Shown here piece after piece: positions 1,640 to 51,173 of a DNA stretch of 64,000 nt (its first letter is position 1; each line of letters begins with the position of its first letter). This stretch comes from Chloroflexota bacterium. GTDB taxonomy: Bacteria > Chloroflexota > UBA11872. The stretch covers positions 259 to 64,258 of the forward strand of contig CBDCOK010000001.1 in the NCBI GenBank assembly GCA_965219705.1, given 5' to 3'. The notes beneath the pieces are model-generated. The model saw only the letters and a program-made list of their open reading frames with translations, ran no database searches and had not been told where the DNA came from. A program made the position numbers and the translations under genes.

Positions 1640-3219
1640 GGCTCTCCTCAAACAGGTGTGGGTGGGTTGAGGTCGATGGGCGCGACCGGGAGTAGCTACG
1701 GGACGGTCGGTCTGTCAACGCGCTGCGCGCGTTCTCCGCTTCGCTGCGACCCTGTCGGGTGACAGGCCGACCGTCGCTCCGCTGAGGGTGCAGTTATGGG
1801 CCTTGCGGCCCGGGCTGGACGGAAGCGTCCGGGCGGTCGAGAGGTTGTGTCGCCGACAGCGGGCGTCTACGGCGGGATGGGCTGGCCGGCCTCCCGTCGG
1901 CCGACGGAAGTCATTGAAAACGCAGGGGCTTCCTGTTCTCATTGGCGTTGCAATAGGACAACCAATGAGGAGGAGGACAGCCCCATGCGTGTGACCACAC
2001 TACTACGCCGACTGCTGGGAGTCACGCAGTTGTACGTCGAGCAGGTGCGCATCGGGACGACGGGGATGTTGAGCGTGTCGGCGCGGCCGTCGTGGCGTCG
2101 GTCCCGGTGCGGGGCGTGCGGCCGCCGGGCGGTGCGCTACGACCGGCAGCCAGCTCGGTTGTGGCGCCATGTGCCGTGGGGTCGGGTCACGGTGTGGCTG
2201 CGGTATGCCCCGTGGCGGGTATCGTGCGGTCGCTGCGGGGTTCGGGTCGAGCAGGTGTCGTGGGCGGCGCACGGCAGCGCGTTCACGGCGCCGCTCGAGG
2301 AGTTGGCGGCCTATCTGGCGCAGGTGACGGACCGGACGACGGCGAGTCGCCTGGTGGGGATTTCGTGGCCGGCGGTCGGCGGCATCGTCGAGCGGGTGGT
2401 GGCTCGCCGGCTGGACTCGACGCGGCTGGCCGGGCTGCGGCGGATCGGCATTGACGAGTTCAGCTATCGGAAGCGGCACCACTATCTGACGGTGGTGGTC
2501 GACCATGACCGCCGGTGCGTGGTCTGGGCCGGGCCGGGGCGCAGCGCCGAAACGCTGGGGACATTCTTCGACCTGTTGGGAGCGGCCGGCTGTGCCCGGA
2601 TCGAACTGGTGACGGCCGACCTGGCGGCGAGCTACCGCAAGGCGGTGGCGGCGCGGGTGCCGCAGGCGCGGGTGGTCTACGACCGATTTCACGTCGAGCG
2701 GCTGGCCGCCGACGCGGTCGACGAGGTCCGCCGCACGGAGCAACACCGCCTGGGGAAGACGTCGGGCAAGGTGCTCAAGAGGACGCGCTATGCGCTGCTG
2801 AAGCACCCGGCGCGCCTGAAGCCGGGTGAAGCGCGACGCCTGGCACGATTGCGCCGGCAGAACCGGGTCCTGGACCGCGCCTACGAGTTGAAGGAGTACC
2901 TGGCGACGATCCTCGAGCAGGCCAAGCCCGACGAGGCCGACGAACTGCTCGACCAGTGGCTGGACTGGGCGGCGCGGTCACGTCTGGCGCCGTTCGTCAA
3001 GCTGGCGCGGACGGTCCGGAAGCACGCGGCGGGGATCCTCGCCTACCTCGACACGAAGATGACCAACGGGCGGGTCGAGGGGATCAACAACAAGCTGCGG
3101 GTCATCGCGCGGCGCGCCTACGGCTTCCACTCGCACGGACCGCTCATCTCCATGCTGTATCTCTGCTGTGGAGGCATCGAGCTGGCGCCACCGCTACCCA
3201 CACGAATTTGAGGAGATTC
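1640..3219 (+). mobile_element. ISL3-family IS, copy 1 (1580 bp), 8-bp target-site duplication GACATTGG
   Basis: Left inverted repeat GGCTCTCCTCAAACAGGTGTGGGTGGG and right end ...CCCACACGAATTTGAGGAGATTC. Identical 8-mers GACATTGG sit at 1632-1639 and 3220-3227. Confidence 0.85.
1985..3211 (+). CDS. ISL3-family transposase (409 aa from the ATG at 1985)
   Basis: N-terminal zinc-finger-like region (CGACGRRAV...CGRCG) and DDE body with ISL3 hallmarks (IGIDEFSYRKRHHY..., GRVEGINNKLRVIARRAYGF). Identical protein recurs at 6531-7757. Confidence 0.85.
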   Translation: MRVTTLLRRLLGVTQLYVEQVRIGTTGMLSVSARPSWRRSRCGACGRRAVRYDRQPARLWRHVPWGRVTVWLRYAPWRVSCGRCGVRVEQVSWAAHGSAFTAPLEELAAYLAQVTDRTTASRLVGISWPAVGGIVERVVARRLDSTRLAGLRRIGIDEFSYRKRHHYLTVVVDHDRRCVVWAGPGRSAETLGTFFDLLGAAGCARIELVTADLAASYRKAVAARVPQARVVYDRFHVERLAADAVDEVRRTEQHRLGKTSGKVLKRTRYALLKHPARLKPGEARRLARLRRQNRVLDRAYELKEYLATILEQAKPDEADELLDQWLDWAARSRLAPFVKLARTVRKHAAGILAYLDTKMTNGRVEGINNKLRVIARRAYGFHSHGPLISMLYLCCGGIELAPPLPTRI

Positions 3220-3316
3220 GACATTGGCCGGCCGCGCCATTCGCATTCGAGAGCGCCAGGATGGCTCCTTCGACTACACTACTACTCGTGGGGGGTGAGA
3301 GAGAAAGGAACTACAA

Positions 3317-3592
3317 ATGAAAAACATCATCGCGCTGCTGAATGATCAACGGTCTGAATTGCTGGACAGTGTCGCTCGAATCGATGCGGCGATCGCCGCC
3401 CTTGGTGTGAAGGCGCGCCCGTCCGCGCCTTCGAGGCAGCCTGCGAAGCGTACGCGCCGCGAGATGTCAGCCGAGGCAAAGCAAGCGGTCTCGGACCGGA
3501 TGAAGAACTATTGGGCGGAACGCAGGAAGCAGGCTGAGCCTACCAACAGCGGTGACGCGGAGAACACGGACGACACGCCGACTGGGGCGTAG
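3317..3592 (+). CDS. Hypothetical small basic protein (91 aa)
   Basis: Good RBS (gagaaaggaactacaaATG). N-terminal amphipathic helix followed by a K/R-rich tail. No family recognised. Confidence 0.4.
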   Translation: MKNIIALLNDQRSELLDSVARIDAAIAALGVKARPSAPSRQPAKRTRREMSAEAKQAVSDRMKNYWAERRKQAEPTNSGDAENTDDTPTGA

Positions 3593-3825
3593 GCACCTAC
3601 CGCAGTGAGCTATCTGGAGCCCTACCTGTTTCACGCCCGGCATACAGCCTCCTGACGTGATCCGGCAGGTTGACGGATCGGCCGTTATTGGACGCTGGAC
3701 CGTCCACGGGGGTGGCGGGCCCGTCTCCGCCCGACGGCCACAGCGCGCATCCGGGATCGACCGCCAACCGTGACTTCTCACCGCGCGCCGAGCACGCCAA
3801 CGAGCTGGCGCCAGGGCGCGACCGT

Positions 3826-6522: not shown

Positions 6523-8102
6523 GAATCTCCTCAAATTCGTGTGGGTAGCGGTGGCGCCAGCTCGATGCCTCCACAGCAGAGATACAGCATGGAGATGAGC
6601 GGTCCGTGCGAGTGGAAGCCGTAGGCGCGCCGCGCGATGACCCGCAGCTTGTTGTTGATCCCCTCGACCCGCCCGTTGGTCATCTTCGTGTCGAGGTAGG
6701 CGAGGATCCCCGCCGCGTGCTTCCGGACCGTCCGCGCCAGCTTGACGAACGGCGCCAGACGTGACCGCGCCGCCCAGTCCAGCCACTGGTCGAGCAGTTC
6801 GTCGGCCTCGTCGGGCTTGGCCTGCTCGAGGATCGTCGCCAGGTACTCCTTCAACTCGTAGGCGCGGTCCAGGACCCGGTTCTGCCGGCGCAATCGTGCC
6901 AGGCGTCGCGCTTCACCCGGCTTCAGGCGCGCCGGGTGCTTCAGCAGCGCATAGCGCGTCCTCTTGAGCACCTTGCCCGACGTCTTCCCCAGGCGGTGTT
7001 GCTCCGTGCGGCGGACCTCGTCGACCGCGTCGGCGGCCAGCCGCTCGACGTGAAATCGGTCGTAGACCACCCGCGCCTGCGGCACCCGCGCCGCCACCGC
7101 CTTGCGGTAGCTCGCCGCCAGGTCGGCCGTCACCAGTTCGATCCGGGCACAGCCGGCCGCTCCCAACAGGTCGAAGAATGTCCCCAGCGTTTCGGCGCTG
7201 CGCCCCGGCCCGGCCCAGACCACGCACCGGCGGTCATGGTCGACCACCACCGTCAGATAGTGGTGCCGCTTCCGATAGCTGAACTCGTCAATGCCGATCC
7301 GCCGCAGCCCGGCCAGCCGCGTCGAGTCCAGCCGGCGAGCCACCACCCGCTCGACGATGCCGCCGACCGCCGGCCACGAAATCCCCACCAGGCGACTCGC
7401 CGTCGTCCGGTCCGTCACCTGCGCCAGATAGGCCGCCAACTCCTCGAGCGGCGCCGTGAACGCGCTGCCGTGCGCCGCCCACGACACCTGCTCGACCCGA
7501 ACCCCGCAGCGACCGCACGATACCCGCCACGGGGCATACCGCAGCCACACCGTGACCCGACCCCACGGCACATGGCGCCACAACCGAGCTGGCTGCCGGT
7601 CGTAGCGCACCGCCCGGCGGCCGCACGCCCCGCACCGGGACCGACGCCACGACGGCCGCGCCGACACGCTCAACATCCCCGTCGTCCCGATGCGCACCTG
7701 CTCGACGTACAACTGCGTGACTCCCAGCAGTCGGCGTAGTAGTGTGGTCACACGCATGGGGCTGTCCTCCTCCTCATTGGTTGTCCTATTGCAACGCCAA
7801 TGAGAACAGGAAGCCCCTGCGTTTTCAATGACTTCCGTCGGCCGACGGGAGGCCGGCCAGCCCATCCCGCCGTAGACGCCCGCTGTCGGCGACACAACCT
7901 CTCGACCGCCCGGACGCTTCCGTCCAGCCCGGGCCGCAAGGCCCATAACTGCACCCTCAGCGGAGCGACGGTCGGCCTGTCACCCGACAGGGTCGCAGCG
8001 AAGCGGAGAACGCGCGCAGCGCGTTGACAGGCCGACCGTCCCGTAGCTACTCCCGGTCGCGCCCATCGACCTCAACCCACCCACACCTGTTTGAGGAGAG
8101 CC
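6523..8102 (-). mobile_element. ISL3-family IS, copy 2 (1580 bp), 8-bp duplication TTCGTTGC; transposase 6531-7757 intact
   Basis: Same transposase as copy 1 (471-aa ORF identical) and the same terminal inverted repeats. TTCGTTGC is found at 6515-6522 and 8103-8110. Confidence 0.85.
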
Positions 8103-8466: not shown

Positions 8467-10047
8467 GAATCTCCTCAAATTCGTGTGGGTAGCGGTGGCG
8501 CCAGCTCGATGCCTCCACAGCAGAGATACAGCATGGAGATGAGCGGTCCGTGCGAGTGGAAGCCGTAGGCGCGCCGCGCGATGACCCGCAGCTTGTTGTT
8601 GATCCCCTCGACCCGCCCGTTGGTCATCTTCGTGTCGAGGTAGGCGAGGATCCCCGCCGCGTGCTTCCGGACCGTCCGCGCCAGCTTGACGAACGGCGCC
8701 AGACGTGACCGCGCCGCCCAGTCCAGCCACTGGTCGAGCAGTTCGTCGGCCTCGTCGGGCTTGGCCTGCTCGAGGATCGTCGCCAGGTACTCCTTCAACT
8801 CGTAGGCGCGGTCCAGGACCCGGTTCTGCCGGCGCAATCGTGCCAGGCGTCGCGCTTCACCCGGCTTCAGGCGCGCCGGGTGCTTCAGCAGCGCATAGCG
8901 CGTCCTCTTGAGCACCTTGCCCGACGTCTTCCCCAGGCGGTGTTGCTCCGTGCGGCGGACCTCGTCGACCGCGTCGGCGGCCAGCCGCTCGACGTGAAAT
9001 CGGTCGTAGACCACCCGCGCCTGCGGCACCCGCGCCGCCACCGCCTTGCGGTAGCTCGCCGCCAGGTCGGCCGTCACCAGTTCGATCCGGGCACAGCCGG
9101 CCGCTCCCAACAGGTCGAAGAATGTCCCCAGCGTTTCGGCGCTGCGCCCCTGGCCCGGCCCAGACCACGCACCGGCGGTCATGGTCGACCACCACCGTCA
9201 GATAGTGGTGCCGCTTCCGATAGCTGAACTCGTCAATGCCGATCCGCCGCAGCCCGGCCAGCCGCGTCGAGTCCAGCCGGCGAGCCACCACCCGCTCGAC
9301 GATGCCGCCGACCGCCGGCCACGAAATCCCCACCAGGCGACTCGCCGTCGTCCGGTCCGTCACCTGCGCCAGATAGGCCGCCAACTCCTCGAGCGGCGCC
9401 GTGAACGCGCTGCCGTGCGCCGCCCACGACACCTGCTCGACCCGAACCCCGCAGCGACCGCACGATACCCGCCACGGGGCATACCGCAGCCACACCGTGA
9501 CCCGACCCCACGGCACATGGCGCCACAACCGAGCTGGCTGCCGGTCGTAGCGCACCGCCCGGCGGCCGCACGCCCCGCACCGGGACCGACGCCACGACGG
9601 CCGCGCCGACACGCTCAACATCCCCGTCGTCCCGATGCGCACCTGCTCGACGTACAACTGCGTGACTCCCAGCAGTCGGCGTAGTAGTGTGGTCACACGC
9701 ATGGGGCTGTCCTCCTCCTCATTGGTTGTCCTATTGCAACGCCAATGAGAACAGGAAGCCCCTGCGTTTTCAATGACTTCCGTCGGCCGACGGGAGGCCG
9801 GCCAGCCCATCCCGCCGTAGACGCCCGCTGTCGGCGACACAACCTCTCGACCGCCCGGACGCTTCCGTCCAGCCCGGGCCGCAAGGCCCATAACTGCACC
9901 CTCAGCGGAGCGACGGTCGGCCTGTCACCCGACAGGGTCGCAGCGAAGCGGAGAACGCGCGCAGCGCGTTGACAGGCCGACCGTCCCGTAGCTACTCCCG
10001 GTCGCGCCCATCGACCTCAACCCACCCACACCTGTTTGAGGAGAGCC
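8467..10047 (-). mobile_element. ISL3-family IS, copy 3 (1581 bp), duplication TCAATTCC; transposase frameshifted (pseudogene, 8475-9702)
   Basis: One extra nucleotide (cgcccc-t-ggcccgg near 9150) splits the transposase into 344-aa and 235-aa ORFs. TCAATTCC is found at 8459-8466 and 10048-10055. Confidence 0.8.
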
Positions 10048-10859: not shown

Positions 10860-11652
10860 CCCGCGTCATTGAATACGCCCGGTCTCTAAATCACGATGCG
10901 CTCGATCTCGTCGACGCTGATCGTGTCCGCCGTCCGGTCGTAGAGCTTGGTCGTCTTCGGCGACGCGTGCCCGGCGATCCGCTGCGCGTGCTCGAGCGTC
11001 CCACCGTTCGACAAGTACGCCGTGATCCCCGTCGCCCGGAACGTATGGCAGCAGGTCGACGCCGACAGTTCCGCCGCCGCCGCCCGACGCTTGATCATCG
11101 CCAGGGACGAGCAGCCGCGACAGCGCCCGCCCCGTCAGCCTCTGCCCCGTCGGGTCGACGCTCTGGAAGAGCGGCGCCTTCGCTTCGCCCGGCCCGGCCA
11201 CCTCGAGGTAGCGTCGAGGGCCTCGCCCGCCCGGTGGTGGGCCGGGACATCGTGCCGCTTGCCGCCCTTTTCGTGGAGCCTCAGCCACCCCCGACTCCCC
11301 TGCCGGAAGTAGTCCGCCCGCCGCATCGCGACGACCGCGCTCACCCGCGCGAAGCTGTAGAGCATGACCGACAGAAGCGCCCGGTCGCGAATGCCCGCGA
11401 GCGTCCTGGTGTCGATCGCCTCGAGCAGCCGGCGGGCCTCGGCCGGCGAGAGCACCGGCGTCGCGCCCTTCGTGACCACATGCTCGGCCCCCGGACTGCC
11501 GCCGCCGGGTTCACCGGGAGGAGCTGGCTGACGACGAGCCAGTCGCCGAGCATGCGGATGGCGGCCAGGTGCTGCTTGACCGTGGGCGCCGAGCCAGGGT
11601 GGCTCCGGATGTAGGCCGCCACGTGCAGCGGCGAGACCGTCTCGAGCGCTAG
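10860..11652 (-). pseudogene. Tyrosine recombinase, degenerate copy (frameshifted, N-terminal part cut off by the IS1634 insertion; remnant continues at 13744-13812)
   Basis: Fragments in three frames: C-terminus ...HTFRATGITAYLSNGGTLEHAQRIAGHASPKTTKLYDRTADTISVDEIERIVI; middle ...RDRALLSVMLYSFARVSAVVAMRRADYFRQGSRGWLRLHEKGG; N-terminal part ...LETVSPLHVAAYIRSHPGSAPTVKQHLAAIRMLGDWLVV. After the IS, ...RTRAAYGRAVGQFLAWCEARGL. Confidence 0.6.
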
Positions 11653-13743
11653 CCCATGTTTACCAAGTTGACCGGCGATTTTGCCCTTTTTGGCGGTATT
11701 TTGAGGCGTGCGCACCCGCAACTTGTTGATTTTAAATGATCGGGATTTGGCAGAACGCGATGTAGTGCCATAATCGTATCGGTGTCCTTGCCCCGCGGTA
11801 GTACACCCCGCTATCGTGGCAGCATGTTCATTCGGCGCACCCAGACCCGCCGGACCGCTGACGGCAAGCCCTATTTCTCGCACCGCCTGGTCCACACCGA
11901 ACGCCTCGGTCACACCGTGTGTCAGCGCACGCTGCTCAACCTCGGGCGCCACTTCGACATTGCCCAGGCTGACTGGCCGCTGCTGTGCACCCGCATCACC
12001 GACGTACTCAACGGCCAAGCACCGCTGATGGCCGACTGCCCGCCCGCCGTCGAGCAGGAAGCGCAGCGCATCGCCGCGCAGTTGCTCGCCCGCGGTGCCG
12101 AGGCGAGCATGCCGACCGGCGCAGCGGCCGACATCCAGCGGGTCGACGTCGACTCGTTGCGCCTGGTCCGCCCCCGCAGCATCGGCGTCGAGCAGTTGGG
12201 TCTGTGGGCGCTCGACCAGGTCGGCCTGCCGGACTTGTTGGCCCGCCTGGGTGTCAACGGCGCGCTGCGCACAGCGGCGGCCGGCGTCATCGTCGGGCGC
12301 ATGGCCCACCCGGCCTCCGAGCGCGAGACGCACCGCTGGCTGCAGCAGCGCAGCGGCCTCGGCGAGTTGCTCGGCGTCGACTTCGAGACCGTCGGCGCCA
12401 TGCAGCTCTACCGCGCCTCGGACCAGTTGGTGAAGCATCGCGACGCGATCGAGGCGCACCTGTTCGACCGCGCCCTCGGGCTCTTCGACCTGCAGCCGAC
12501 CGTCACCCTCTACGACCTGACCAACACGTATTTCGAAGGCGAGGCGAGCGAGCAGCCGCAGGCCAAGCGCGGGCACTCGAAAGAGAGGCGCGGCGATTGC
12601 CCCTTGCTGACCCTCGGTCTGATGCTCGATGCCAGCGGCTTCGTCCGCCGCTCGAAGGTCTTCGCCGGCAACGTCCGCGAACACCGCACCCTGGCCGGCA
12701 TGCTCGACGCGCTCGACGCGCCGGCCGGCGCCCTCGTGGTCGTCGACCGCGGCATCGCTACCGAGGCTGCCATCAGCTGGCTCCGCGAGAACCACTATCG
12801 CTACCTGGTCGTCAGCCGCGAGCGTCACCGGCAGTTCGACGCCGACGCCGCCGTGTCGATCCAGACGCAGTCCAAACAGATCGTGCATCTGCACAAGGTG
12901 GTCGCCACCGACCCCGATGAGGTGCGCCTGTACTGCTACTCCGAGGAGCGGGCCGAGAAGGAACGCGGCATCGTCGAGCGTTTCGCCACCCGCTTCGAGG
13001 CCGCCCTGACCAAGCTCAACGACGGGCTGTCACGGCCGCGCGCCCACAAGCGCGTCGAACAGGTCTGGCAGCGCATCGGGCGCCTCAAGGCCCGGCATAC
13101 CCGCGTCGCCGCCCACTACCAGATCAACGTCACCGCCGACGAGACCGGCAACACGGCCGTCGCCGTCACCTGGACCCGCCGCCCGCAGGACGGCTCGATG
13201 CTCACCCATCCCGGCGTCTACTGCCTGCGCAGCAGCGAGACCGACTGGGACGAAGATACGCTCTGGCGCACCTACACCACGCTCACCGACGTCGAAGCCG
13301 TCTTCCGTTCGCTCAAGTCCGAACTCGGCCTGCGACCCATCTACCACCGCAAGCCGCGACGCGCCGACGGCCACCTGTTCATCACCGTCATCGCCTACCA
13401 ACTCGGCCAGCTCATCCGAACCCGCCTGCGCGCCCACGGCAGCCACGCCTGTTGGACCACCCTCAGACGTCTCGTCGAAGGTCAGCAGCGCGTCACCGCC
13501 ACCTTCCGACGGCCCGACGGCCGCACCCTGCACGTGCGCACCGCCACGCAACCCGAACCCGAGCAGCGCGCCGTCTACGACGCCCTCGGCGTCGACCCGC
13601 ACCCAAGCGGCGTCCGCAAGACGATCGTCTGACCCACCGACCGCCGCCCGCTTGGCACACGGTTGTAGTGCCACTCGAGCCGTTTCATCAGCGTAAGTCG
13701 TTGATTCTAAAATGCCTTGGATCTACCGTTGGTAAACATGGGT
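11653..13743 (+). mobile_element. IS1634-family (IS4 superfamily) IS, ~2.09 kb
   Basis: Terminal inverted repeats CCCATGTTTACCAA (11653) and TTGGTAAACATGGG (13730-13743). It interrupts the integrase pseudogene. Confidence 0.75.
11824..13632 (+). CDS. IS1634-family transposase (602 aa from the ATG at 11824)
   Basis: Long DDE transposase: MFIRRTQTRRTADGKPYFSHRLV...YDLTNTYFEG...VVDRGIATE...RSLKSELGLRPIYHRKPRRADGHLFI. The architecture is typical of IS1634/ISMac5-like transposases. Confidence 0.75.
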   Translation: MFIRRTQTRRTADGKPYFSHRLVHTERLGHTVCQRTLLNLGRHFDIAQADWPLLCTRITDVLNGQAPLMADCPPAVEQEAQRIAAQLLARGAEASMPTGAAADIQRVDVDSLRLVRPRSIGVEQLGLWALDQVGLPDLLARLGVNGALRTAAAGVIVGRMAHPASERETHRWLQQRSGLGELLGVDFETVGAMQLYRASDQLVKHRDAIEAHLFDRALGLFDLQPTVTLYDLTNTYFEGEASEQPQAKRGHSKERRGDCPLLTLGLMLDASGFVRRSKVFAGNVREHRTLAGMLDALDAPAGALVVVDRGIATEAAISWLRENHYRYLVVSRERHRQFDADAAVSIQTQSKQIVHLHKVVATDPDEVRLYCYSEERAEKERGIVERFATRFEAALTKLNDGLSRPRAHKRVEQVWQRIGRLKARHTRVAAHYQINVTADETGNTAVAVTWTRRPQDGSMLTHPGVYCLRSSETDWDEDTLWRTYTTLTDVEAVFRSLKSELGLRPIYHRKPRRADGHLFITVIAYQLGQLIRTRLRAHGSHACWTTLRRLVEGQQRVTATFRRPDGRTLHVRTATQPEPEQRAVYDALGVDPHPSGVRKTIV

Positions 13744-13811
13744 TAGGCCCCGGGCCTCGCACCAGGCCAGGAACTGCCCGACGGCCCGCCCGTAGGCCGC
13801 CCGCGTCCGCC

Positions 13812-15432: not shown

Positions 15433-15562
15433 GAGCGTGCTCGAAACGCGAAAACCGTTGTTGTCGTTCCGGTTGGCGGCGCGGTTCCTGTTGCGCGCGC
15501 CAGGCTGGAGGTTCTCGGCGTTGTTGTTCCACGAGCCGCCGCGCAGCACGCGACGGCCGGGG
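15433..15562 (-). repeat. DGR template repeat (TR)
   Basis: Minus-strand sequence CGTGCTGCGCGGCGGCTCGTGG-AACAACAACGCCGAGAACCTCCAGCCTGGCGCGCGCAACAGGAACCGCGCCGCCAACCGGAACGACAACAAC-GGTTTTCGCGTTTCGAGCACGCTC. In the target reading frame it would encode RGGSWNNNAENLQPGARNRNRAANRNDNNGFRV. Differences from VR-A lie almost entirely at TR adenines. It starts ~8 nt after the RT stop. Confidence 0.8.
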
Positions 15563-15567
15563 GCCGG

Positions 15568-15948
15568 TCAGGCCCCCGGGACCGGTTGCCCGCGAGGCGC
15601 GAACCACCCGTCCCGGAAGATCGCGCGGCGCAGACGCCACGTGTCGGCGTGCGCCGCATGCGCCACCCAGGCGCGAACCCGCTGCTCCACCTCGCTTCGC
15701 GTCACCGTGCCCGCCCGCCAGCGGTCGCGCAGCCCGCGCAGCCGGTTGCGGAAGCGGCGCACGTTCGCCTCCGGCAGCCGCCGACGGCCGCCCGGCCGCA
15801 GCTCGAACCCGAGGAACGTCGCCGGCGACGACGTCGCCGCCACGTGCGTCTTCGCCGGGTGCAGCGACAGCCGCCGATGCGCCAGAAATGCAGCCACGCG
15901 GCCGCGCCACGCCTCGAGCCGCACCGGGTCGTCGGCGAACAACGCGAG
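15568..15948 (-). CDS. DGR reverse transcriptase, exon 2 (C-terminal thumb region)
   Basis: ...(F)ALFADDPVRLEAWRGRVAAFLAHRRLSLHPAKTHV...FLGFEL...NVRRFRNRLRGL...VEQRVRAWVAHAAHADTWRLRRAIF has the typical DGR RT C-terminal organisation. It continues the YVDD motif of exon 1 across the intron. Confidence 0.75.
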   Translation of the reverse strand, partial: LALFADDPVRLEAWRGRVAAFLAHRRLSLHPAKTHVAATSSPATFLGFELRPGGRRRLPEANVRRFRNRLRGLRDRWRAGTVTRSEVEQRVRAWVAHAAHADTWRLRRAIFRDGWFAPRGQPVPGA

Positions 15949-16598
15949 GTGAGTCGCCCGGGGGAATCTCACCCCCGGGCGCTCGCAGAACTGTACGTGA
16001 ACGTCTCCGCTCATACAGCTCCCATCATCCAGCCGCCGGCGTGAACGGCTTCGCGTGGCTCGACGGCTCCTCCCGCGCGCGCGGTTGACCGTCGGGACAC
16101 GCTGGATGACGCGACCCCTTTGCTCCATCGAGTTTCCCCGACTTCATCGCTCGTACGGGTGCCTCGCATCGGACCTCTCATCCTTGGGGGTCGGCCCCTT
16201 GGATTTCTCCCTTCGCATCGAGGCGACAGGTTCCCACGTTCCGCACAAGGGCCTGGTGCAGGGTCACGCCACCTTTATGCCGGGTGCCGCCCAGCCAAGC
16301 TGCAGGCTCCCGCTGGACTCGTCCCGGGTTAACGACTCGCCCCGGTTTCGACACCGTCCCTACGCTTTCGACACGTTGCCGGTGGTTCATCCTCTTCGTC
16401 TCCCTGCACCCTACCTGACGCGGTCAAGCCGCGCCGTTTCCGTGACGCTTACCACCTCGGCTCTTGACCGAGGCAGCGCACGGCGGTTTGAAGCCTCCCC
16501 CTGCCGGGCGGCTCCGAGGGGCCTGCCCTCATCCCTCGTGCAGCATGGCTGCAGCTAGGTGGCCATCTCGGCCTCCTTTCCGCGCCTTCGTGGCGCAC
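15949..16598 (-). mobile_element. ORF-less group II intron (~650 nt) inserted in the DGR RT gene
   Basis: 5' end GUGCGCC (Ll.LtrB-like GUGCGCCC). Domain V GAGCUGUAUGAGCGGAGACGUUCACGUACAGUUC (plus 15988-16021) has the AGC triad, a GAGA tetraloop and a CACGUAC bulge. Domain VI GAGCGCCCGGGGGUGAGAUUCCCCCGGGCGACUC has a bulged A at -6. 3' end ...ACUCAC. Domain V-to-3'-end spacing is 73 nt. No ORF is present. Confidence 0.75.
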
Positions 16599-17304
16599 AA
16601 TCGTCGACGTAGCGCACATACGGCGCGCCGAGGGCCTCGGTGACGAAGTGGTCGAAGCGGTCGAGGTAGACGTTGGCGAAGAACTGGCTCGTCAGGTTGC
16701 CGATCGGCAGACCGCGCCGCCGCTCGTACGGCGTGAACAGGTCGTCGCCCGGATAGTAGATGTGCACCGGCTCCTGCGGGTTCGAGCCGTCCACGATCCG
16801 GTCGAGCACCACCAGCGTCCGCCGGCACGCGATGCGACGCCGGAGGTCGGCCTTCAGCACCTCGTGGTCGATGGCCGGGAAGTAGCGGAAGACGTCGCCG
16901 CGCAGGACCCAGCGGTATCGGTCGCGCAGCCGCTCGTAGCGCGCCACCGCGCGGTGCGTCCCCTTGCCCGCGCGGTTGGCGTAGCTGTGCGCGATGAACC
17001 CCCGCTCGAACACCGGCGCGACCACCGAGTGCACCGCGTGGTGCACCACCCGGTCGCGGAACGGCGCGGCCGAGATCATTCGGCGCTTCGGGTCGCGGAT
17101 CTCGAACGAGACGAAGCCGCCCGGCCGCCATGTCCCCGCCCGCAGTTCGCGCTCCAGCCGCAGGACCTCCGGCTCCAGGTTCGCGAGAAACCCCGCCGGC
17201 ACCGGCACCCGGCGCTTACCCGCCGCCGCACGCTGGGCCGCCGCGCACAGCGCCTCGAACGTCGCGATTCGCTCGAACAGCCCGTCAGCCCTGCGCCGCC
17301 TCAT
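16599..17304 (-). CDS. DGR reverse transcriptase, exon 1 (ATG at 17304; fingers and palm through YVDD)
   Basis: MRRRRADGLFERIATFEALCAAAQRAA...FRDRVVHHAVHSVVAPVFERGFIAHSYANRAGKGTHRAVARYE...GLPIGNLTSQFFANVYLDRFDHFV...APYVRYVDD. The IGNLTSQ motif is DGR-specific. The ORF then reads into the intron (DDCAPRRRGKEAEMAT*). Confidence 0.8.
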
Positions 17305-17743: not shown

Positions 17744-19279
17744 TTAATCCAGCGTCCTCGACACGCGAAAACCGACGTCGGCGAGCCGGTAGGCGGCGCG
17801 GAGCCAGTCGCGCGCGCCAGGCCGGAGGGAGCTGTCGTACCACGAGCCGCCGCGCAGCACGCGATGGCCGCAGTTCCCCTCCCAGTTCCCCTCCCAGCAG
17901 TCCGACGTCCACTCCCACACGTTCCCAACCATGTCCGACAGCCCCGCCGCGTTCGCGCCGTGGCCGCCCACAGGGCACGTTCCATCAGGACGCGACCCCA
18001 GACCCAACCGGTCGCACCCGGGCTGAGAACCGGTCGCCGCTCGCGCCCACTCCGACTCCGTCGGCAACCGATAAGTCGCGCCTGTCGTCCGGCTCAGCCA
18101 CGACACATACGCCTGAACGTCGTCCCAGCTCACGCACGTCACAGGATGACGGTCCGTCTGCGGAAAGCCCGGGTTGCGCCACGAATCGCCATCGCCGAGC
18201 GTGGTGCAATCGCCGACAGCCCCAGACCCCGTCGCCGAGGCGAACGCACGATACTCCCCCACCGTCACCTCGTAACGGCCCAGCGCCAGAGCGCCGCCGG
18301 GAAGCACCACCATCTCCGGACAATCGTCGCAGTCACGGAACGCGTCCCCAGGACGATACCCAGGGTCCGAGACGCCACCGAACCCGGGCGAGCTCGCGCC
18401 GGAGACCCGGGAACCGGCTGCCGGAGAACCCGTCGCGCCCGACGGCCGACCGGACGCGCCCGCCGGAACACCCGGCGACGAACGAAGGGCCGACAGCCGA
18501 TTCTCGGCCAGACGGCGAAACACCCCGTTCGGGAACTGCTCGAGATACGCCTCGAAGTCGGCTGCGTCGCTGCTGTTCACCACCGACTGCCAGAACACCG
18601 TCTCCTGCTCCGCGCTCGCCGCAGGCGACGGCGGAGACGACGGCTGCTCACGCGCACCCGCCGCGGGCCGTTGCCGGAACGTCGTCTGGCCAGGCCCGGA
18701 AGACCGCAGCGCCGCCACCGACGAGCCATCCAGATAGCCCGTCGCGCGTGAACCCCGCGACGATTGCCAGCCCCGGATCGCGGCACGCGTACGCGGGCCG
18801 AACATCCCGTCCGCGCCACCCGGGTCGAACCCCGCCGACTGAAGCCCCCGCTGAACCTCCTGACGAGCCGCACGGTCCAGGCCAAGCCCCTCCTCGACCA
18901 CCGGGCCATTGCAGCCCCACACCCGAACGACGCACCCAGAACCGCCGCCTCGAGAGCTGCACGCCGACAGCGCCGCCTGCTGAGCCGCGGACGCCGAGCC
19001 ATACGATTCCGCCCAGCCCACCGCCGTGCTGTCCGAGTCCTGGTCCGCCGCATATGCCGCGCAACGCGCGAACGTCAGAACCACAGAGCAGTTCGAGCCG
19101 CACTCCGACAGCGCCCGCCGCTGCGCCGCGCCCGCCGTCTCGTAGTCCACCGCCCAGCCCCACTGGTCGCCCTGCCGCTCGTCGACCGCCAACGCGCCCA
19201 CCGGCTGCGCAAACGCTGCACCCGCCGAACTCAGCATCACCCAAACCACGAGCGAAGACCAACGGTGTGCCTGCATCAA
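17744..19279 (-). CDS. DGR target protein A: signal peptide, DUF4189-like Cys domain, peptidoglycan-binding domain, FGE-sulfatase (C-type-lectin-fold) domain with C-terminal VR
   Basis: 511 aa; MMQAHRWSSLVVWVMLSSAGAAFAQP; VGALAVDERQGDQWGWAVDYETAGAAQRRALSECGSNCSVVLTF...; GFDPGGADGMFGPRTRAAIRGWQ; ...HPVTCVSWDDVQAYVSWLS..ATYRLPTESEW...GNVWEWTSDCW...RVLRGGSWYDSSLRPGARDWLRAAYRLADVGFRVSRTLD. Confidence 0.85.
   Translation of the reverse strand: MMQAHRWSSLVVWVMLSSAGAAFAQPVGALAVDERQGDQWGWAVDYETAGAAQRRALSECGSNCSVVLTFARCAAYAADQDSDSTAVGWAESYGSASAAQQAALSACSSRGGGSGCVVRVWGCNGPVVEEGLGLDRAARQEVQRGLQSAGFDPGGADGMFGPRTRAAIRGWQSSRGSRATGYLDGSSVAALRSSGPGQTTFRQRPAAGAREQPSSPPSPAASAEQETVFWQSVVNSSDAADFEAYLEQFPNGVFRRLAENRLSALRSSPGVPAGASGRPSGATGSPAAGSRVSGASSPGFGGVSDPGYRPGDAFRDCDDCPEMVVLPGGALALGRYEVTVGEYRAFASATGSGAVGDCTTLGDGDSWRNPGFPQTDRHPVTCVSWDDVQAYVSWLSRTTGATYRLPTESEWARAATGSQPGCDRLGLGSRPDGTCPVGGHGANAAGLSDMVGNVWEWTSDCWEGNWEGNCGHRVLRGGSWYDSSLRPGARDWLRAAYRLADVGFRVSRTLD
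17747..17869 (-). repeat. DGR variable repeat VR-A (cognate to TR 15433-15562)
   Basis: Aligns with TR over ~125 nt. The ~24 differences at TR-adenine positions give AAC to TAC/GAC/AGC/CTC/GTC/GCC codons. There is a 6-nt indel, four other non-A changes (gcc-tcc, gtt-gtg, agc-agg, ctc-ctg) and an identical 3' GGTTTTCGCGT segment (IMH-like). Confidence 0.8.
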
Positions 19280-19586: not shown

Positions 19587-20225
19587 GTGATGATCATTTC
19601 GTTTCTAAACCAGAAAGGTGGCGTGGGGAAAACGACGCTTGCCCTCCACGTGGCCGTGGCGCTGCAGCTCCAGGGCCGGGGGCGTGGCCTTGTGGTCGAT
19701 GCGGATCCGCAGGGCTCCGCTCTCGACTGGCAGGCGCAGCGGGCCGAGCCTTCCCCCGTGCCGGTGGTCGGGATGCCGACGCCGACGCTACATCGCGACG
19801 CACGCGCGATCGCGGATACGGACTATCTGGTGATCGACGGGCCGCCGCGGATGGACGTGATCGCGAAATCGGCCATTGCGGCGAGCGACCTAGTGTGCAT
19901 TCCGGTCCAGCCGTCGCCGCTCGACGTGTGGGCGGCGGGCGAGATCTTCGATCTGGTCGAGGAGTGCCGGGTGCTGAAGCCGAGCTTGGCCGTCCGGTTC
20001 GTAATCAACCGGGCGGTTCAGGGGACGGTGCTGGCCGCGGAGGTCGCGGCGGCGCTCGAGAAGTTCAAGACGCCGGTGCTGCCGGTTGTGCGGAACCGCA
20101 CGGAGTACGCGAAGGCGATCCGGGCAGGGAAGACGGCGATGGAAACGCAGCCGCGCGGGCGGGCGGCCAGGGATATCGAGGTGCTGACTGACGCGGTGTG
20201 GAACGCGGCACGGGGGGAGCCATGA
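19587..20225 (+). CDS. parA: ParA-family partition ATPase
   Basis: MMIISFLNQKGGVGKTTLALHVAVAL... is a deviant Walker A (KGGVGKTT) in a ParA/MinD-fold protein of 212 aa. Confidence 0.85.
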   Translation: MMIISFLNQKGGVGKTTLALHVAVALQLQGRGRGLVVDADPQGSALDWQAQRAEPSPVPVVGMPTPTLHRDARAIADTDYLVIDGPPRMDVIAKSAIAASDLVCIPVQPSPLDVWAAGEIFDLVEECRVLKPSLAVRFVINRAVQGTVLAAEVAAALEKFKTPVLPVVRNRTEYAKAIRAGKTAMETQPRGRAARDIEVLTDAVWNAARGEP

Positions 20226-29891: not shown

Positions 29892-31460
29892 ATGCGGACC
29901 GTTGCCGACTCGATGCTGGTTCTGTGCGCGTTGGTGTGCACGGCGTCGGTGGCCTCGGCGCAGCCGCCGGTGGGTGCGCTGGCGATCGACGAGCGGCAGG
30001 GCGACCAGTATGGCTGGGCGGTGGACTACGAGACGGCGGGCGCCGCGCAGGCGCGGGCGCTCGGCGAGTGCGGCGCTGGTTGCCGGGTGGTGTTGACGTT
30101 CAACCGTTGCGCCGCCTACGCGGTAGATCAGGACGCGGACAGCACGGCGGTGGGCTGGGCGGAATCGTTCACGTCGTCGTCGTCGGCCCAGCAGGCGGCG
30201 CTGTCGGAATGCAGCTCACGGGGCGGTTCCGGTTGCGTCGTTCGGGTGTGGGGCTGCAACGGCCCGGTGGTCGAGGAGGCTCTGGGGCTCGACCGCGGGG
30301 CGCGTCAGCAGATTCAGCGGGGCCTGCAGTCGGCGGGCTTCGACCCGGGCGGTGCGGACGGCTTGTTCGGTCCGCGCACGCGCGCAGCGATTCGGCGCTG
30401 GCAGACGTCCCGTGGTTCTCGCGCGACGGGCTATCTGGATGGCGCGTCGGTGGCGGCGCTGCGACCGTCGGCACCGGGTCAGCCGACGTTCCGCCAGCGG
30501 GAGGCGGTCGGTGCGGACACGGCTGCGGCACCTGCCGTCTCCGCGCCGCCGCCGCCAGCGGCCTCCGCCGAGCTCGAGGGGCTGTTCTGGCAGTCGGTCA
30601 TGAACAGCACGAACCCGTCGGAGTTCGAGGCGTATCTGCGGCGGTTCCCGAACGGGCTGTTCAGCGAGCTGGCCGAGGCCCGTCTGGCGGCGCTGCGCGC
30701 GCCGGCGGGCGGGCCGCCGGGTGCGGCAGGGGCGGCGGTCGGCGGCGCCAGGCCGACCTCGGGTTCGCGGGCCTCCGGGGCGACGGCGCCGGCATCCGGG
30801 TCGCGGGTCGGCGCCGGGCCCGGGCGGGGCTTCGGTGCGGCGGCCGGCGCGGACGCTCGTCCCCGGCCGGGCGCGGTGTTCCGGGACTGCGACGTGTGCC
30901 CGGAGATGGTGGTGATGCCGGACGGCCGCCTGGCACTGGGCCGCTACGAGGTGACGGTGGGCGAGTATGGGGCGTTCGCGGCGGCGACGGGGGGCGGCGC
31001 GGGCGCCGGATGCATCACCGTTGGCGATGGCGATTCGTGGCGGGACCCCGGCTTTCCGCAGACGGATCGTCATCCTGTGACGTGCGTGAGCTGGGACGAC
31101 GCGCAGGCGTACGTGTCGTGGCTGAGCGGGCAGGCGGGGGCGACGTATCGGTTGCCGACGGAGACGGAATGGGACCGGGCGGCCGCGGGGTCCCAGCGCG
31201 GGTGCGACTATGGGCGGACGGACATCTTTGGCACGTGCCCGGTGGGCTCCTATGGGGCGAACGGCGCGGGTCTGTTCGGCATGGTCGGGAACTTGTGGGA
31301 ATGGACGCAGGACTGCTGGGAGGACTGTGGCCGCCGCGTGCTGCGCGGCGGCTCCTGGGACTTCGGCGCGGAGTTCCAGCGGCCCGGCGCGCGCTACTGG
31401 GACACCGCCGGCGGCCGGAGCGGCAACGTCGGTTTCCGTGTCGCGAGGACGCCGGATTAG
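29892..31460 (+). CDS. DGR-target paralogue B (same architecture as A); C-terminal VR at ~31329-31454
   Basis: MRTVADSMLVLCALVCTASVASAQPPVGALAIDERQGDQYGWAVDYETAGAAQ... ; ends RVLRGGSWDFGAEFQRPGARYWDTAGGRSGNVGFRVARTPD. Confidence 0.85.
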   Translation: MRTVADSMLVLCALVCTASVASAQPPVGALAIDERQGDQYGWAVDYETAGAAQARALGECGAGCRVVLTFNRCAAYAVDQDADSTAVGWAESFTSSSSAQQAALSECSSRGGSGCVVRVWGCNGPVVEEALGLDRGARQQIQRGLQSAGFDPGGADGLFGPRTRAAIRRWQTSRGSRATGYLDGASVAALRPSAPGQPTFRQREAVGADTAAAPAVSAPPPPAASAELEGLFWQSVMNSTNPSEFEAYLRRFPNGLFSELAEARLAALRAPAGGPPGAAGAAVGGARPTSGSRASGATAPASGSRVGAGPGRGFGAAAGADARPRPGAVFRDCDVCPEMVVMPDGRLALGRYEVTVGEYGAFAAATGGGAGAGCITVGDGDSWRDPGFPQTDRHPVTCVSWDDAQAYVSWLSGQAGATYRLPTETEWDRAAAGSQRGCDYGRTDIFGTCPVGSYGANGAGLFGMVGNLWEWTQDCWEDCGRRVLRGGSWDFGAEFQRPGARYWDTAGGRSGNVGFRVARTPD

Positions 31461-46638: not shown

Positions 46639-46676
46639 TAGGGTACCGACCAGATCCGTGTAGAAATACACCCTAA
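46639..46676 (+). repeat. Tn3-family-type terminal inverted repeat remnant (GGGTACCGACCAGATCCGTGTAGAAATACACCCTAAC)
   Basis: Resembles the 51412 inverted repeat (GGGTACCGAC...CGTGT...ATACAC..CTAA). Probably the outer end of the Tn3 relative whose tnpA C-terminus is at 48272-48954, now separated by the IS5 insertion. Confidence 0.35.
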
Positions 46677-48165
46677 CAGCCCGTGGCGAAAGTCAGGGGA
46701 TCCGCACTCGACCGGCTCGATCGAGTTCCGTACACTGGACGGCATGGCGATGGGCAAGAAACCGGCGGCTCGACAGCCGTCGCCGATGTGGGTGACCACG
46801 GCGGACCTTCCGACGAACGCCGGGCATCCCTTCTTCGAGCGTCTGAACCGGGTCCTGGAGGAGGCAGGCTTCGACGCCTTCGTCGAGGGACTGTGCGGGG
46901 CGTTCTACGCTGCGCGGATGGGCCGGCCGAGTCTACGGCCGGGCCGGTATTTCCGTCTGCTGTTCATCGGCTATTTCGAAGGGTTGTCCTCCGAGCGGGG
47001 GATCGCGTGGCGGGTGGCCGATTCGCTGAGTCTGCGGTCGTTTCTGGACCTGGACGTGACCGAGGCGGCACCGGACCACTCGACGTTGTCGCGCACGCGG
47101 CGGCTGATCGACGTGGAGACGCACGTGGCGGTTTTCACGTGGGTGTTGGAGCGGCTCTCCGCTGCAGGCCTGTTGCGGGGGAAGACGGTCGGCATCGATG
47201 CGACGACGCTGGAAGCGAACGCGGCGATGCGGAGCATCGAGCGTCGGGACACGGGCGAATCCTACGAGGCGTTCATTCGGCGGTTGGCGGAAGCGTCGGG
47301 GGTGGAGACACCGACACAGGCGGATCTGGCTCGGTTCGACCGGTCGCGGAAGAACAAGAAGACGTCGAACAAGGAGTGGAAATCGCCGCAGGACCCGGAC
47401 GCGAAGGTCGCGAAGATGAAGGACGGCCGGACGCACTTGGCTCACAAGGCCGAGCACGGGGTCGACATGGACACGGGGGCCATCGTGTCGGTGACGGTGC
47501 AGGATGCATCCGACGGCGATACGGCCACGCTGCCGGAGACGCTGATCACGGCGGCCGAGCAGGTGGAGTTGGTGGCGCCGGACGGTCCGGGGGTCGAAGA
47601 GGTGGTCGCCGACAAGGGGTACCACAGCGACGCGACGCTGGTGGCCCTCGGCGAGGTGGGGGTTCGGAGTCACGTATCGGAGCCGGAGCGCGGCCGGCGC
47701 TGCTGGCAGGACAAGAGGACGGGAGAGACGCCGCCGGAGAAGCGCGCTGCGCAGAAGGCGCTGTATGCGAACCGCCGGCGTGTGGGCGGGCGGCGGGGTC
47801 GTCGCCTGCAACGCTGCCGGGGCGAGGTGGTGGAGCGTTCTTTCGCACACATGTATGAGACAGGGGGAATGCGTCGGGTGTGGGTGCGCGGTCACGAGAA
47901 TGTCCGCAAGCGGGTGCTGATCCAGGCGGCCGCCTGCAACATCGGGCTGCTCCTGCGCCACCAGACCGGCATCGGTACGCCCCGGAGCCTGCAGGGGCGG
48001 GCTCTTTCGGCGATTTGCCGCCTGATCGACCGTCTGATCGACCGCTGGGGGCGTCTGACGCGCGCCTGGGGGTTCAAATGGACACCGACGGCCCTCGTCG
48101 GCTCAATTGCTCATCGCCAAGCTGCCTGAACAGCAGGGCTCAGCGATCAGACTTCTTCCACGGGC
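46667..48165 (+). mobile_element. IS5/IS1182-family IS (~1.5 kb); transposase 46744-48129 (461 aa)
   Basis: Transposase ...HPFFERLNRVLEEAGFDAFVEGLCGAFYAARMGRPSLRPGRYFRLLFIGYFEGLSSERGIAWRVADSLSL... (IS1182 group). Terminal inverted repeats CAGCCCGTGGCGAAAGTC and GACTTCTTCCACGGGCTGC. Confidence 0.75.
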
Positions 48166-49616: not shown

Positions 49617-51173
49617 CTAATCAAGCGTCCTCGCGACACGGAAACCGAAGTCGGTGACCCGGCCGCGGACGTGGTCCCAGAAGCGCGCGCCGGGCCGCTC
49701 CGCGACGTCGTACCAGGAGCCGCCGCGCAGCACGCGATGGACGCAGTCGCCCTCCCAGCAGTCCTCCGTCCATTCCGACAGGTTCCCGACCATGTCGAAC
49801 AGGCCCGCGCCGTTCGCACCGTACGAGCCGACCGGGCACGTGCTAAGGTTCCCAGTCCGCTCACGGTCGCAGCCGCGCTGGGAACCCGCCGCCGCCCGGT
49901 CCCATTCCGCCTCGGTCGGCAAGCGATAAGTCGCCCCGGCCGTCCGGCTCAGCCACGACACATACGCCTGCGCGTCGTCCCAGCTCACGCACGTCACAGG
50001 ATGACGGTCCGTCTGCGGAAAGCCCGGGTCCCGCCGCGAATCGCCGCCAAAGGTGAGGCATCCGCCGCCCGCACCGCCGCCCGTCGCCGACGTGAACGCC
50101 CCATACTCGCCCACCGTCACCTCGTAGCGGCCCAGCGCGAGACGGCCGTCCGGCATCACCACCATCTCCGGGCACACCTCGCAGTCCCGGAACACCGCGC
50201 CCGGCTGCGGACGCGCGTCCGCGCCGGCCGCAGGCCCGCCGACCCGCGACCCGGACGCCGCCGCGGAGGCGCCGGAGACGCGCGAACCCGAAGCCGCGGT
50301 CCCGGCGCCGCCGCCGCGCGCCCCTGCCGCGCCGGACGCCCCGCCCGCCGGCGCGCCCAGCGCTGTCAGCCGGGCCTCGGCCAGCTCGCTGAACAGCCCG
50401 TTCGGGAACCGCCGCAGATACGCCTCGAACTCCGATGGGTTCGTGCTGTTCATGATTGACTGCCAGAACAGGCCCTCGAGCTCGGCAGAGGCGGCCGGCG
50501 CGGCCGCTGGCGGTGGCTGCGGCGGCGGCGCGGAGACGGCAGGCGGCGCAGCCGCGGCGGCGGCGGCCGGCTCCCGCTGGCGGAACGTCGGCTGACCCGG
50601 TGCCGACGGCCGCAGCGCCGCCGCCGACGGCCCATCCAGATAGCCCGTTGCGCGAGAACCCCGAGACGTCTGCCAGCGCCGAATCGCTGCGCGCGTGCGC
50701 GGACCGAACAAGCCGTCCGCACCGCCCGGGTCGAAGCCCGCCGACTGCAGGCCCCGCTGAATCTGCTGACGCGCCCCACGGTCGAGGCCCAGACCCTCCT
50801 CGACCACCGGGCCGTTGCAGCCCCACACCCGAACGAGGCATCCTGTGCCGCCACGCGAGCTGCACTCAGTCAGCGCACGCTGGCGGGCGCCGGCCGGCGA
50901 GGAGTACGACTCCCCCCAACCCACCGCCGTGCTGTCCGCGTCCTGGTCCGCCGCGTACGCGGCGCAGCGCTCGAACGTCAGCACCACCGAGCAGCCCGAG
51001 CCGCACTCCGACAGCACCCGCTGGCGAGCGGCCGCCGCCGTCTCGTAGTCGACTGCCCACCCCCACCGGTCGCCCTGGCGTTCGTCGACCGCCAGCGCAC
51101 CCACCGGCGGCTGCGCCGCGGGCGCCGACGCCATCCGCAGCAACACCCAGAAGACGAGCGCCAATCGGACCAT
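49617..51173 (-). CDS. DGR-target paralogue C (full length); VR at ~49623-49739
   Basis: MVRLALVFWVLLRMASAPAAQPPVGALAVDERQGDRWGWAVDYETAAAARQ... ; ends RVLRGGSWYDVAERPGARFWDHVRGRVTDFGFRVARTLD. Confidence 0.85.
   Translation of the reverse strand: MVRLALVFWVLLRMASAPAAQPPVGALAVDERQGDRWGWAVDYETAAAARQRVLSECGSGCSVVLTFERCAAYAADQDADSTAVGWGESYSSPAGARQRALTECSSRGGTGCLVRVWGCNGPVVEEGLGLDRGARQQIQRGLQSAGFDPGGADGLFGPRTRAAIRRWQTSRGSRATGYLDGPSAAALRPSAPGQPTFRQREPAAAAAAAPPAVSAPPPQPPPAAAPAASAELEGLFWQSIMNSTNPSEFEAYLRRFPNGLFSELAEARLTALGAPAGGASGAAGARGGGAGTAASGSRVSGASAAASGSRVGGPAAGADARPQPGAVFRDCEVCPEMVVMPDGRLALGRYEVTVGEYGAFTSATGGGAGGGCLTFGGDSRRDPGFPQTDRHPVTCVSWDDAQAYVSWLSRTAGATYRLPTEAEWDRAAAGSQRGCDRERTGNLSTCPVGSYGANGAGLFDMVGNLSEWTEDCWEGDCVHRVLRGGSWYDVAERPGARFWDHVRGRVTDFGFRVARTLD

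Follow-up and report, generated by a model that had tools for sequence, protein, structure and literature searches.

The 64-kb stretch of contig CBDCOK010000001.1 analysed here (the window) carries on its minus strand a diversity-generating retroelement (DGR), whose reverse transcriptase (RT) gene is interrupted by an insert of 651 nt (Table 1). That the host gene is a DGR RT had been proposed from the DNA letters alone, and its neighbours bear this out: an accessory gene, avd, which matches Pfam bAvd, a target gene, and a template repeat (TR) that differs from the variable region (VR) of the target gene at adenines. The target gene matches Pfam FGE-sulfatase (2.5e-38), DUF4189 and PG_binding_1; the first of these domains has a C-type-lectin fold. 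The avd gene probably starts further inside the listed open reading frame (ORF), because its homologue is called at 126 aa in L090, a contig with an intron-less allele of the same DGR that is 97% identical in DNA. The RT start codon, ATG at 17304, overlaps the stop of the upstream gene, and the RT contains the IGNLTSQ motif in the form LPIGNLTSQ, which marks DGR RTs.

The TR aligns with the VR at the 3' end of the target gene (15558..15435 with 17870..17751), and all core substitutions, about 18 by hand count in a codon-wise alignment, fall on TR adenines. In the L090 allele, TR and VR are of equal length and again show core substitutions at A only. The two TRs differ from each other at 3 positions. 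The two VRs differ at adenine-templated positions, and diversification has therefore taken place since the alleles split. No second RT is encoded within the 64-kb window.

The RVT_1 match of Pfam stops at the end of RT exon 1, and RT similarity is picked up again about 650 nt downstream, at ALFADDPVRLEAW... The original prediction had described this architecture correctly, with an RT ORF that breaks right after YVDD and a homology that resumes, at ALFADD, on the far side of the insert (16598..15948). Without splicing, the RT frame reads ...APYVRYVDD (GAT at 16602..16600) and continues as CAPRRRGKEAEMAT to a stop codon inside the insert, so that the unspliced product is predicted to be an RT truncated 14 codons past YVDD. 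A protein search recovered many uninterrupted homologues, among them the 361-aa protein P0001, encoded by L090, which is 99% identical to the conceptually spliced RT. The junction in L090 reads ...GTCGACGATT^TCGCGTTG... (the caret marks the insertion point), and the BLAST alignment breaks at window positions 16599/15947. The insertion is clean, with neither a target duplication nor any positional ambiguity, at the site GACGATT^TCGCG; we write the target as TACGTCGACGATT^TCGCG (or TACGTCGACGATT^TCG). The end of the Rfam model RF00029, also at 15948, agrees with the boundary from L090.

The original prediction had placed the end of the insert at ...ACUCAC (15949), and had seen in the junction a one-nucleotide ambiguity that left the RT out of frame or perhaps inactive. 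The break in L090 and the Rfam model put the true end one base further, at 15948 (...GACUCACC). With this exact boundary the ambiguity vanishes, and the suspicion proved unfounded: excision of 16598..15948 yields GAT-TTC-GCG, that is YVDD-F-ALFADD, in an intact ORF of 361 aa. The sequence YVDDFALF is present in all seven close homologues that were read (85-99% identical), and both RT exons are free of stops and frameshifts.

By its sequence and its predicted fold, the insert is a group II intron. When the whole window was scanned with the Rfam covariance models at gathering thresholds, a test that the original prediction had suggested for the insert, exactly two matches were returned, RF01999 and RF00029, both of them inside the RT gap. 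The 5' end, read correctly before as GUGCGCC from 16598, starts with GUGCG (16598..16594), which is identical in 73 of 73 5' ends of the intron family described below. The previously quoted domain V was found at 16021..15988, within the RF00029 match, and the alignment shows the catalytic AGC, a 2-nt bulge, a GNRA loop and the bulged A of domain VI. This A, at 15954, had been recognised as well, but it is the seventh and not the sixth base from the 3' end of the intron. Moreover, 63 of 117 predicted pairs in domains I-III show compensatory changes (RNAalifold, 10 relatives), and domain IV is reduced by deletion. A single-sequence minimum free energy fold had a z-score of -3.9 but mispaired domain V, and was given up in favour of the Rfam alignments and RNAalifold. 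A PDB sequence search yielded no information on the intron class; the candidate class name, D-like, comes from similarity to rhizobial introns.

Table 1. Features of the interrupted DGR locus in window coordinates. EBS, exon-binding site; IBS, intron-binding site; IEP, intron-encoded protein.
Feature	Positions	Strand	Description
DGR target gene, 511 aa as listed	17744..19279	-	VR at C-terminal end, ~17751..17870
DGR accessory gene avd, listed ORF 151 aa	17285..17740	-	Pfam bAvd 62.3 bits, cutoff 40
DGR RT exon 1	16599..17304	-	ATG at 17304 to ...YVRYVDD plus first base (T) of Phe codon
IBS2 TACGT	16607..16611	-	Pairing table
IBS1 GACGATT	16599..16605	-	Pairing table
ORF-less group II intron, 651 nt, GUGCG...GACUCACC	15948..16598	-	Boundaries from L090; Rfam RF01999 and RF00029; covariation
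Part of domain I	16413..16530	-	RF01999 group-II-D1D4-2, 108.4 bits, E = 2e-21, gathering 36, full-length model match
Candidate EBS2 GCGUA	16361..16365 (intron 234-238)	-	Unpaired stretch; pairs with exon -9..-13 (TAYGY)
Candidate EBS1 AGUCGUU	16331..16337 (intron 262-268)	-	Hairpin loop; pairs with exon -1..-7 (GAYGAYT)
IEP gene remnant in domain IV	16025..16147	-	40 codons: first ~34 IEP codons fused to last 5
Domains V and VI	15948..16023	-	RF00029 Intron_gpII, 55.7 bits, E = 3e-8, gathering 40, full-length match
Domain V GAGCUGUAUGAGCGGAGACGUUCACGUACAGUUC	15988..16021	-	RF00029 alignment
Domain VI and 3' end	15948..15985	-	Bulged branch-point A at 15954; last intron base 15948
DGR RT exon 2	15568..15947	-	TC finishes Phe codon, then ALFADD... 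to stop codon 15570..15568
DGR template repeat (TR)	15435..15558	-	Directly downstream of RT stop; AAC-rich

Homing site, exon pairing and other hosts

As judged from the flanks of its relatives, the insertion site is the regular homing site of the intron lineage, the Y-[A/V]-D-D codons of RT genes, a point that the first reading of the sequence had missed. About 70 family copies have uniform flanks, ...TAC GCN GAY GAY T^TC GTN..., which encode Y-A-D-D followed by F, L or I, and most of these copies reside in RT genes of other group II introns. Spliced sequences were built for ten distinct hosts, nine of which were scanned. The cutoff (300) of NCBIfam TIGR04416, the model for group II intron RT/maturases, is passed by six of the ten; one host is the family's own intron-encoded protein (IEP), which forms the 5' exon at three loci (L018, L037 and L057). 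The consensus over 27 distinct 5' exons is TAY GYN GAY GAY T^. Within it, G at -7, G at -4 and A at -3 are invariant, and positions -13, -12 and -10 (T/A/G) as well as -6 are near-invariant. Only C or T occurs at -2 and -5, which is nearly true for -11 and -9 also, and -8 is free.

Two candidate exon-binding sites account for this pattern by complementarity. The loop of candidate EBS1 is conserved while its stem covaries (CCGGG/CCCGG vs CCAGG/CCUGG), and exon positions -2..-7 pair with it in all 27 distinct sites. For candidate EBS2, full pairing over its five positions is possible in 21 of the 27; the surrounding GAAAGCGUAG is identical in the published intron B.th.I3 and in six other relatives, and a further two deviate from it solely in the G that follows GCGUA. 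One compensating EBS2 change was seen, in L092. Both assignments are candidates based on complementarity, conservation and this single covariation. Opposite every C/T wobble base of the target there is a G, and the third base of the Ala/Val codon, which is four-fold degenerate, is left out of the pairing. The window exon, TAC GTC GAC GAT T, can pair at 12 of 12 positions, nine of them Watson-Crick and three G-U, which would explain how an RT with YVDD was hit.

A few ectopic copies lie outside RT genes, in L044 (TtcA, HHADD^F), in L073 (a TonB-dependent receptor, WYADD^Y) and in L095/L097, whose 5' exon (RYVDD) is weakly Cas7b-like. These sites read ...GCGGACGACT^ or ...TATGTGGACGATT^ by chance, which shows that it is the DNA sequence that is recognised, rather than RT genes as such.

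A scan of metagenomes for V-D-D codons followed by the first 14 nt of the intron returned nine loci. In L093, the ...GYVRYVDD of an RT with 62% identity to the window RT is followed by a related intron of full length; this is a second, independent 5' junction of the DGR type. Two other related introns start directly after the YVDD codons of 5' exons that match PADLOC defence models, Drt3b (294 bits) in L091 3580-3893, from a human gut metagenome, and RT_UG19 (324 bits) in L096 2040-2780. For L091, L093 and L096 the evidence is the 5' junction only. The 3' flanks of L091 and L093 belong to a different group II IEP, which could reflect nested insertion with recombination (collapsed nested insertions) or chimeric assemblies. 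Among the remaining loci, L094/L099 and L098 were rejected, since they have no more than the first 14 nt of the intron and fail to align as introns; two L092 introns from the scan for Val-type junctions have different EBS loops and were set aside.

These hosts raise the question whether the lineage is a general parasite of bacterial RTs and not only of other group II introns. In such a scenario the EBS pair would read the Y-[A/V]-D-D motif through codon degeneracy, and would thereby gain entry into DGR RTs (the window and L093), defence RTs (Drt3b in L091, RT_UG19 in L096) and retron-like RTs (B.th.I3). At present we regard this broader claim as improbable. If it were true, a host retroelement or defence system could depend on, or be silenced by, an intron maturase, and DGR hypermutation in the window would be conditional on group II intron activity.

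Intron family and loss of the intron-encoded protein

A 38-mer spanning domain V occurs exactly in 89 public genome stretches. Its carriers are almost all metagenome-assembled genomes (MAGs) of Vicinamibacterales, with at least 38 loci in a single MAG (hand count of the listed rows). BLAST searches with the window intron show three main forms among its relatives: full-length copies, an ORF-less form of 698 nt with at least 22 copies, and rarer deletion forms. The ORF-less forms occur at several insertion sites. The full-length copies, of about 1877 nt, are 94-96% identical to the window intron and are found in related genomes. Their domain IV ORF scores 421.6 bits on TIGR04416, and the encoded IEP has the Pfam domains RVT_1 and GIIM only, with no endonuclease domain. 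The search for a parental intron with its IEP, which had been proposed at the outset, thus succeeded in public genomes but not within the 64-kb window.

Compared with the full-length intron, the window copy lacks positions 569-1780, which are 1212 nt of domain IV with the whole RT/maturase ORF, and positions 439-452. Because the RT/maturase ORF is deleted, the window intron cannot make its own protein. The earlier statement that the insert holds no maturase ORF was thus right, and what is left is the 40-codon remnant listed in Table 1, which residues 1-50 of the IEP of L082, a full-length relative with its intron at 1828..3704, match at 76% identity (tblastn). The 5' part of domain IV with the IEP start codon is kept, as it is in evidently mobilised ORF-less forms. 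The window intron has only two private substitutions in positions 1-555. Finally, L067 and L083 carry the same 569/~1781 deletion type at other insertion sites, so ORF-less copies have spread; this implies their mobilisation by an IEP acting in trans.

Two distinct ORF-less forms, 569/1749 and 569/~1781, share the 5' breakpoint ...GAAGCCGTT^ (full-length 569; window intron ~554-556), which points either to shared ancestry or to a hotspot of deletion. A third ORF-less form breaks at 582/1658. The sequence at the 569 breakpoint loosely resembles the homing site (GCCGTT^TCGT).

Head-to-tail tandem arrays were found in Vicinamibacterales MAG 98a3bb7b (L033 4724-7867, L034 5006-6496, L038 3918-6587 and L039 1099-1891). 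In these arrays, 698-nt and 1877-nt copies abut base-to-base (...GACTCACC^GTGCG...), and the first copy follows a normal YADD 5' exon. Recognition of the intron's own 3' end was rejected as their origin, since ...GACTCACC does not pair with EBS1. Renewed invasion of a site already occupied, with the new copy entering between the 5' exon and the resident intron, explains the arrays best: their 5' exon is unaltered, and the one difference is in the +1 base.

At other loci the 5' and 3' exons come from different RT genes: L086 1501-4075, L057 6012-7943 (minus strand), L037 1609-3489 and L018 1428-5817, as well as L091 and L093; one such junction reads NYADD^LVILIDGYRRW. The mismatched exons suggest recombination between copies or collapsed nested insertions, and assembly chimerism in short-read metagenome contigs could also produce them. 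The same kind of error might be suspected in the window, where a misassembly across a repeated element would have placed the insert in the RT gene: the intron family is highly repetitive, and mismatched exons are present in the public contigs L091 and L093 and in hosts H9, H12 and H23. However, both flanks of the window intron are collinear, to the base, with one gene and with the intron-less allele, exon 1 bears the matching IBS1 and IBS2, and the private deletion of the window copy (positions 439-452) shows that it is not a collapsed consensus. We therefore consider an artefact extremely unlikely.

Origin of the interrupted gene and its consequences

The account that we favour is that a member of this family reverse-spliced into the sense strand of the DGR RT gene, between TAC GTC GAC GAT T and TC GCG, having arrived by retrohoming. 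The site would have been chosen by pairing with EBS1 (-1..-7) and EBS2 (-9..-13), G-U wobbles absorbing the Val-for-Ala codon and the GAT codon. Splicing would most likely use, in trans, a maturase encoded at another locus of the same genome by a full-length member of the family. The intron is consistent with a need for such a trans-acting maturase, and full-length relatives with an RT and maturase exist in related genomes. Because the unspliced RT is predicted to be truncated and excision to restore an intact 361-aa RT, DGR function would depend on splicing. Taken as a whole, we hold this account of the identity and origin of the insert to be very probable. Whether the intron still splices efficiently is a separate matter, for which we would put the chances at about even.

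Several observations weigh against the account, or against a working intron. No IEP gene is present in the insert or anywhere in the 64-kb window, and a maturase acting in trans in the same cell is assumed. The 14-nt deletion (full-length 439-452) lies between domains III and IV, immediately downstream of domain III; it is private to the window copy, since none of the other copies examined has it, and folding could suffer from it. The VR lacks 6 nt (GCCGAG) relative to the TR, the sole exception to the adenine-only differences. An active DGR would be expected to overwrite such a deletion, so that the DGR may not have fired recently. Moreover, the intron ends in ...CACC, with CC in place of the usual terminal AY of group II introns. 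This end is common to all of the approximately 100 family 3' ends that were read, except those of L006, L030 and L026, and B.th.I3 appears to end in ...CACU (CU). The CC end looks like a peculiarity of the lineage and not like decay.

Most of these points would also fit a dead end, in which the intron has lost the ability to splice, leaving the RT gene a pseudogene and the whole DGR inert, the damage being too recent to have led to further decay. The ORF-less state of the copy in a window that has no IEP, the private deletion next to domain III, the VR deletion that a working DGR would erase, and the three differences between the TR and that of L090 all speak for such an outcome. Yet neither exon contains a stop or a frameshift, and the conceptually spliced RT shares 99% identity with the protein of the intron-less allele. 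The ribozyme has only its two private substitutions, with the 38-mer across domain V recurring exactly in public genomes, and the part of domain IV with the IEP start is kept as in ORF-less forms that were evidently mobilised. On balance we think a dead end rather unlikely.

The opposite fate, in which the intron is kept as a switch, and DGR hypermutation takes place only when a group II maturase is expressed or conditions permit self-splicing, the intron thus being a regulator and not a parasite, appears very unlikely to us. It is true that the insertion is precise and sense-oriented and the DGR otherwise intact, and Trichodesmium introns that coordinate host-gene expression via a shared maturase are documented (PMC12584367). 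But an intron-less allele that is 97% identical exists, and a related intron was seen in just one further RT of the DGR type, by its 5' junction only. The site is fully explained by the generic Y[A/V]DD targeting of the lineage, and nothing indicates conservation of the intron at the DGR locus.

If retrohoming with splicing in trans is correct, two retroelement systems would be linked in the window: the mutagenic RT of the DGR would be produced only once a group II intron had been removed from its mRNA, with the maturase of another element as the probable agent. The known hosts of the RT-motif-homing lineage are extended to DGR RTs and, by 5'-junction evidence alone, to two defence-type RTs. 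In Vicinamibacterales (Acidobacteriota) the lineage has recently expanded on a very large scale; the copies there include several ORF-less derivatives and tandem arrays, and show signs of having recombined with one another. With its tolerance of wobble pairs, the design of the EBS pair offers a testable account of how a protein motif, rather than a single DNA sequence, can be recognised by an RNA-guided element. As for annotation, DGR surveys that accept only an uninterrupted RT ORF would overlook or misassign loci of this kind.

The window contains further sequences related to the DGR. VR-like repeats at 31329-31452 (plus strand) and 49624-49743 (minus strand), in paralogous FGE-sulfatase-type genes, are 75% and 70% identical to the TR, respectively, and an avd-like fragment is found at 49482-49584. 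The repeat at 31329..31452 was rejected as a cognate VR, since 14 of its 31 mismatches to the TR are not at adenines; with 17 of 31 at adenines, the differences are not adenine-specific. The repeat at 49624..49743 was set aside for its low identity of 70%. The extra repeats and the avd-like fragment look like orphan or decayed DGR target modules. A ParA/CbiA-type partition gene (19587-20225, plus strand) adjoins the DGR in both alleles (L090 2056-4170), and a RepA_C gene is present in L090 as well. The DGR may thus be located on a plasmid or another mobile replicon. The GC content of the window is 68%, and repeated or insertion sequence-like elements are found at 1919-3186, 6556-7823, 8500-9768, 11645-13746 and 46659-48177. 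They include three copies of a ~1.27-kb repeat and a transposase-like ORF of 616 aa, and are 81-91% identical to loci of Vicinamibacterales MAGs (83-91% for insertion sequences).

Comparison with known introns

By sequence comparison, the window intron is a member of a known lineage of IIB-like, endonuclease-less introns that home to the RT active site, whose described members are B.th.I3, M.a.I5, UA.I3 and P.l.I2. The passages on this lineage in Tourasse and Kolsto (2008; PMC2504315), who cite Dai and Zimmerly (2003), describe its members as 58-67% identical, about 1.8 kb long and B-like in structure, without an endonuclease domain; the RT active site of their hosts is made up by IBS1 and IBS2. 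According to the same passages, B.th.I3 sits in a retron-like RT gene at AGGTATGCTGATGACT (RYADD). We compared the window intron with B.th.I3 by sequence, and with M.a.I5, UA.I3 and P.l.I2 by their published description.

B.th.I3, of Bacillus thuringiensis israelensis, was located on pBTHD789-2 with exactly its published target, AGGTATGCTGATGACT. It shares the homing site of the window intron, AGGTATGCTGATGACT^GTGCG compared with CGCTACGTCGACGATT^GTGCG, the RYADD codons serving as IBS1 and IBS2. Both introns have identical motifs at EBS2 (GAAAGCGUAG) and EBS1 (AGUCGUUAAC), the same 5' end, GUGCGCCACGAA, and a similar 3' end, ...ACUCAC(C/U). Over the first 440 nt they are 65% identical, and an alignment of 414 aa between the IEP of B.th.I3 and that of the full-length relative L082 shows 53% identity. 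Moreover, the B.th.I3 lineage and the presumed parent of the window intron are both of ~1.8-1.9 kb (the parent being 1877 nt) with an IEP that consists of RT and X domains and lacks an endonuclease, and the host of B.th.I3 is likewise an RT that does not come from a group II intron. Unlike B.th.I3, the window intron resides in a DGR RT with Val (YVDD), which would have been reached via a G-U wobble at -9, and it is an ORF-less deletion derivative of a family that has hugely expanded in Vicinamibacterales, with head-to-tail tandem arrays.

ORF-less group II introns that rely on the maturases of relatives are already known (PMC4424553, PMC2882425). The ORF-less TeI3 introns of Thermosynechococcus elongatus are mobilised and spliced by IEPs of the related TeI4 (Mohr et al., 2010; PMC2882425). 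TeI3 and the window family have in common that ORF-less derivatives exist alongside full-length relatives, and that both insert into other group II introns (twintrons). For TeI3 the sharing of a maturase in trans was shown experimentally; for the window intron it is a prediction. TeI3 also differs in its site, which lies between two start codons of the TeI4 ORF and not in a catalytic motif, and in its host genes.

The searchable literature, including a term search within a large DGR survey (PMC5758913), yielded no report of a group II intron inside a DGR RT gene. What is new here is therefore the DGR RT as a type of host, together with the ORF-less form, of a lineage whose principle was published in 2003-2008. 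Finally, the endonuclease-less, IIB-like introns of the RmInt1 type in Sinorhizobium and Rhizobium show ~64-68% whole-length DNA similarity to full-length members of the family, and a relative of this type in Mesorhizobium has the same 5' end, GUGCGCCACGAAGG. The RmInt1-type relatives target other sequences, the Mesorhizobium copy following ...CTCGACGAAG, while the window family homes to the Y-[A/V]-D-D codons.

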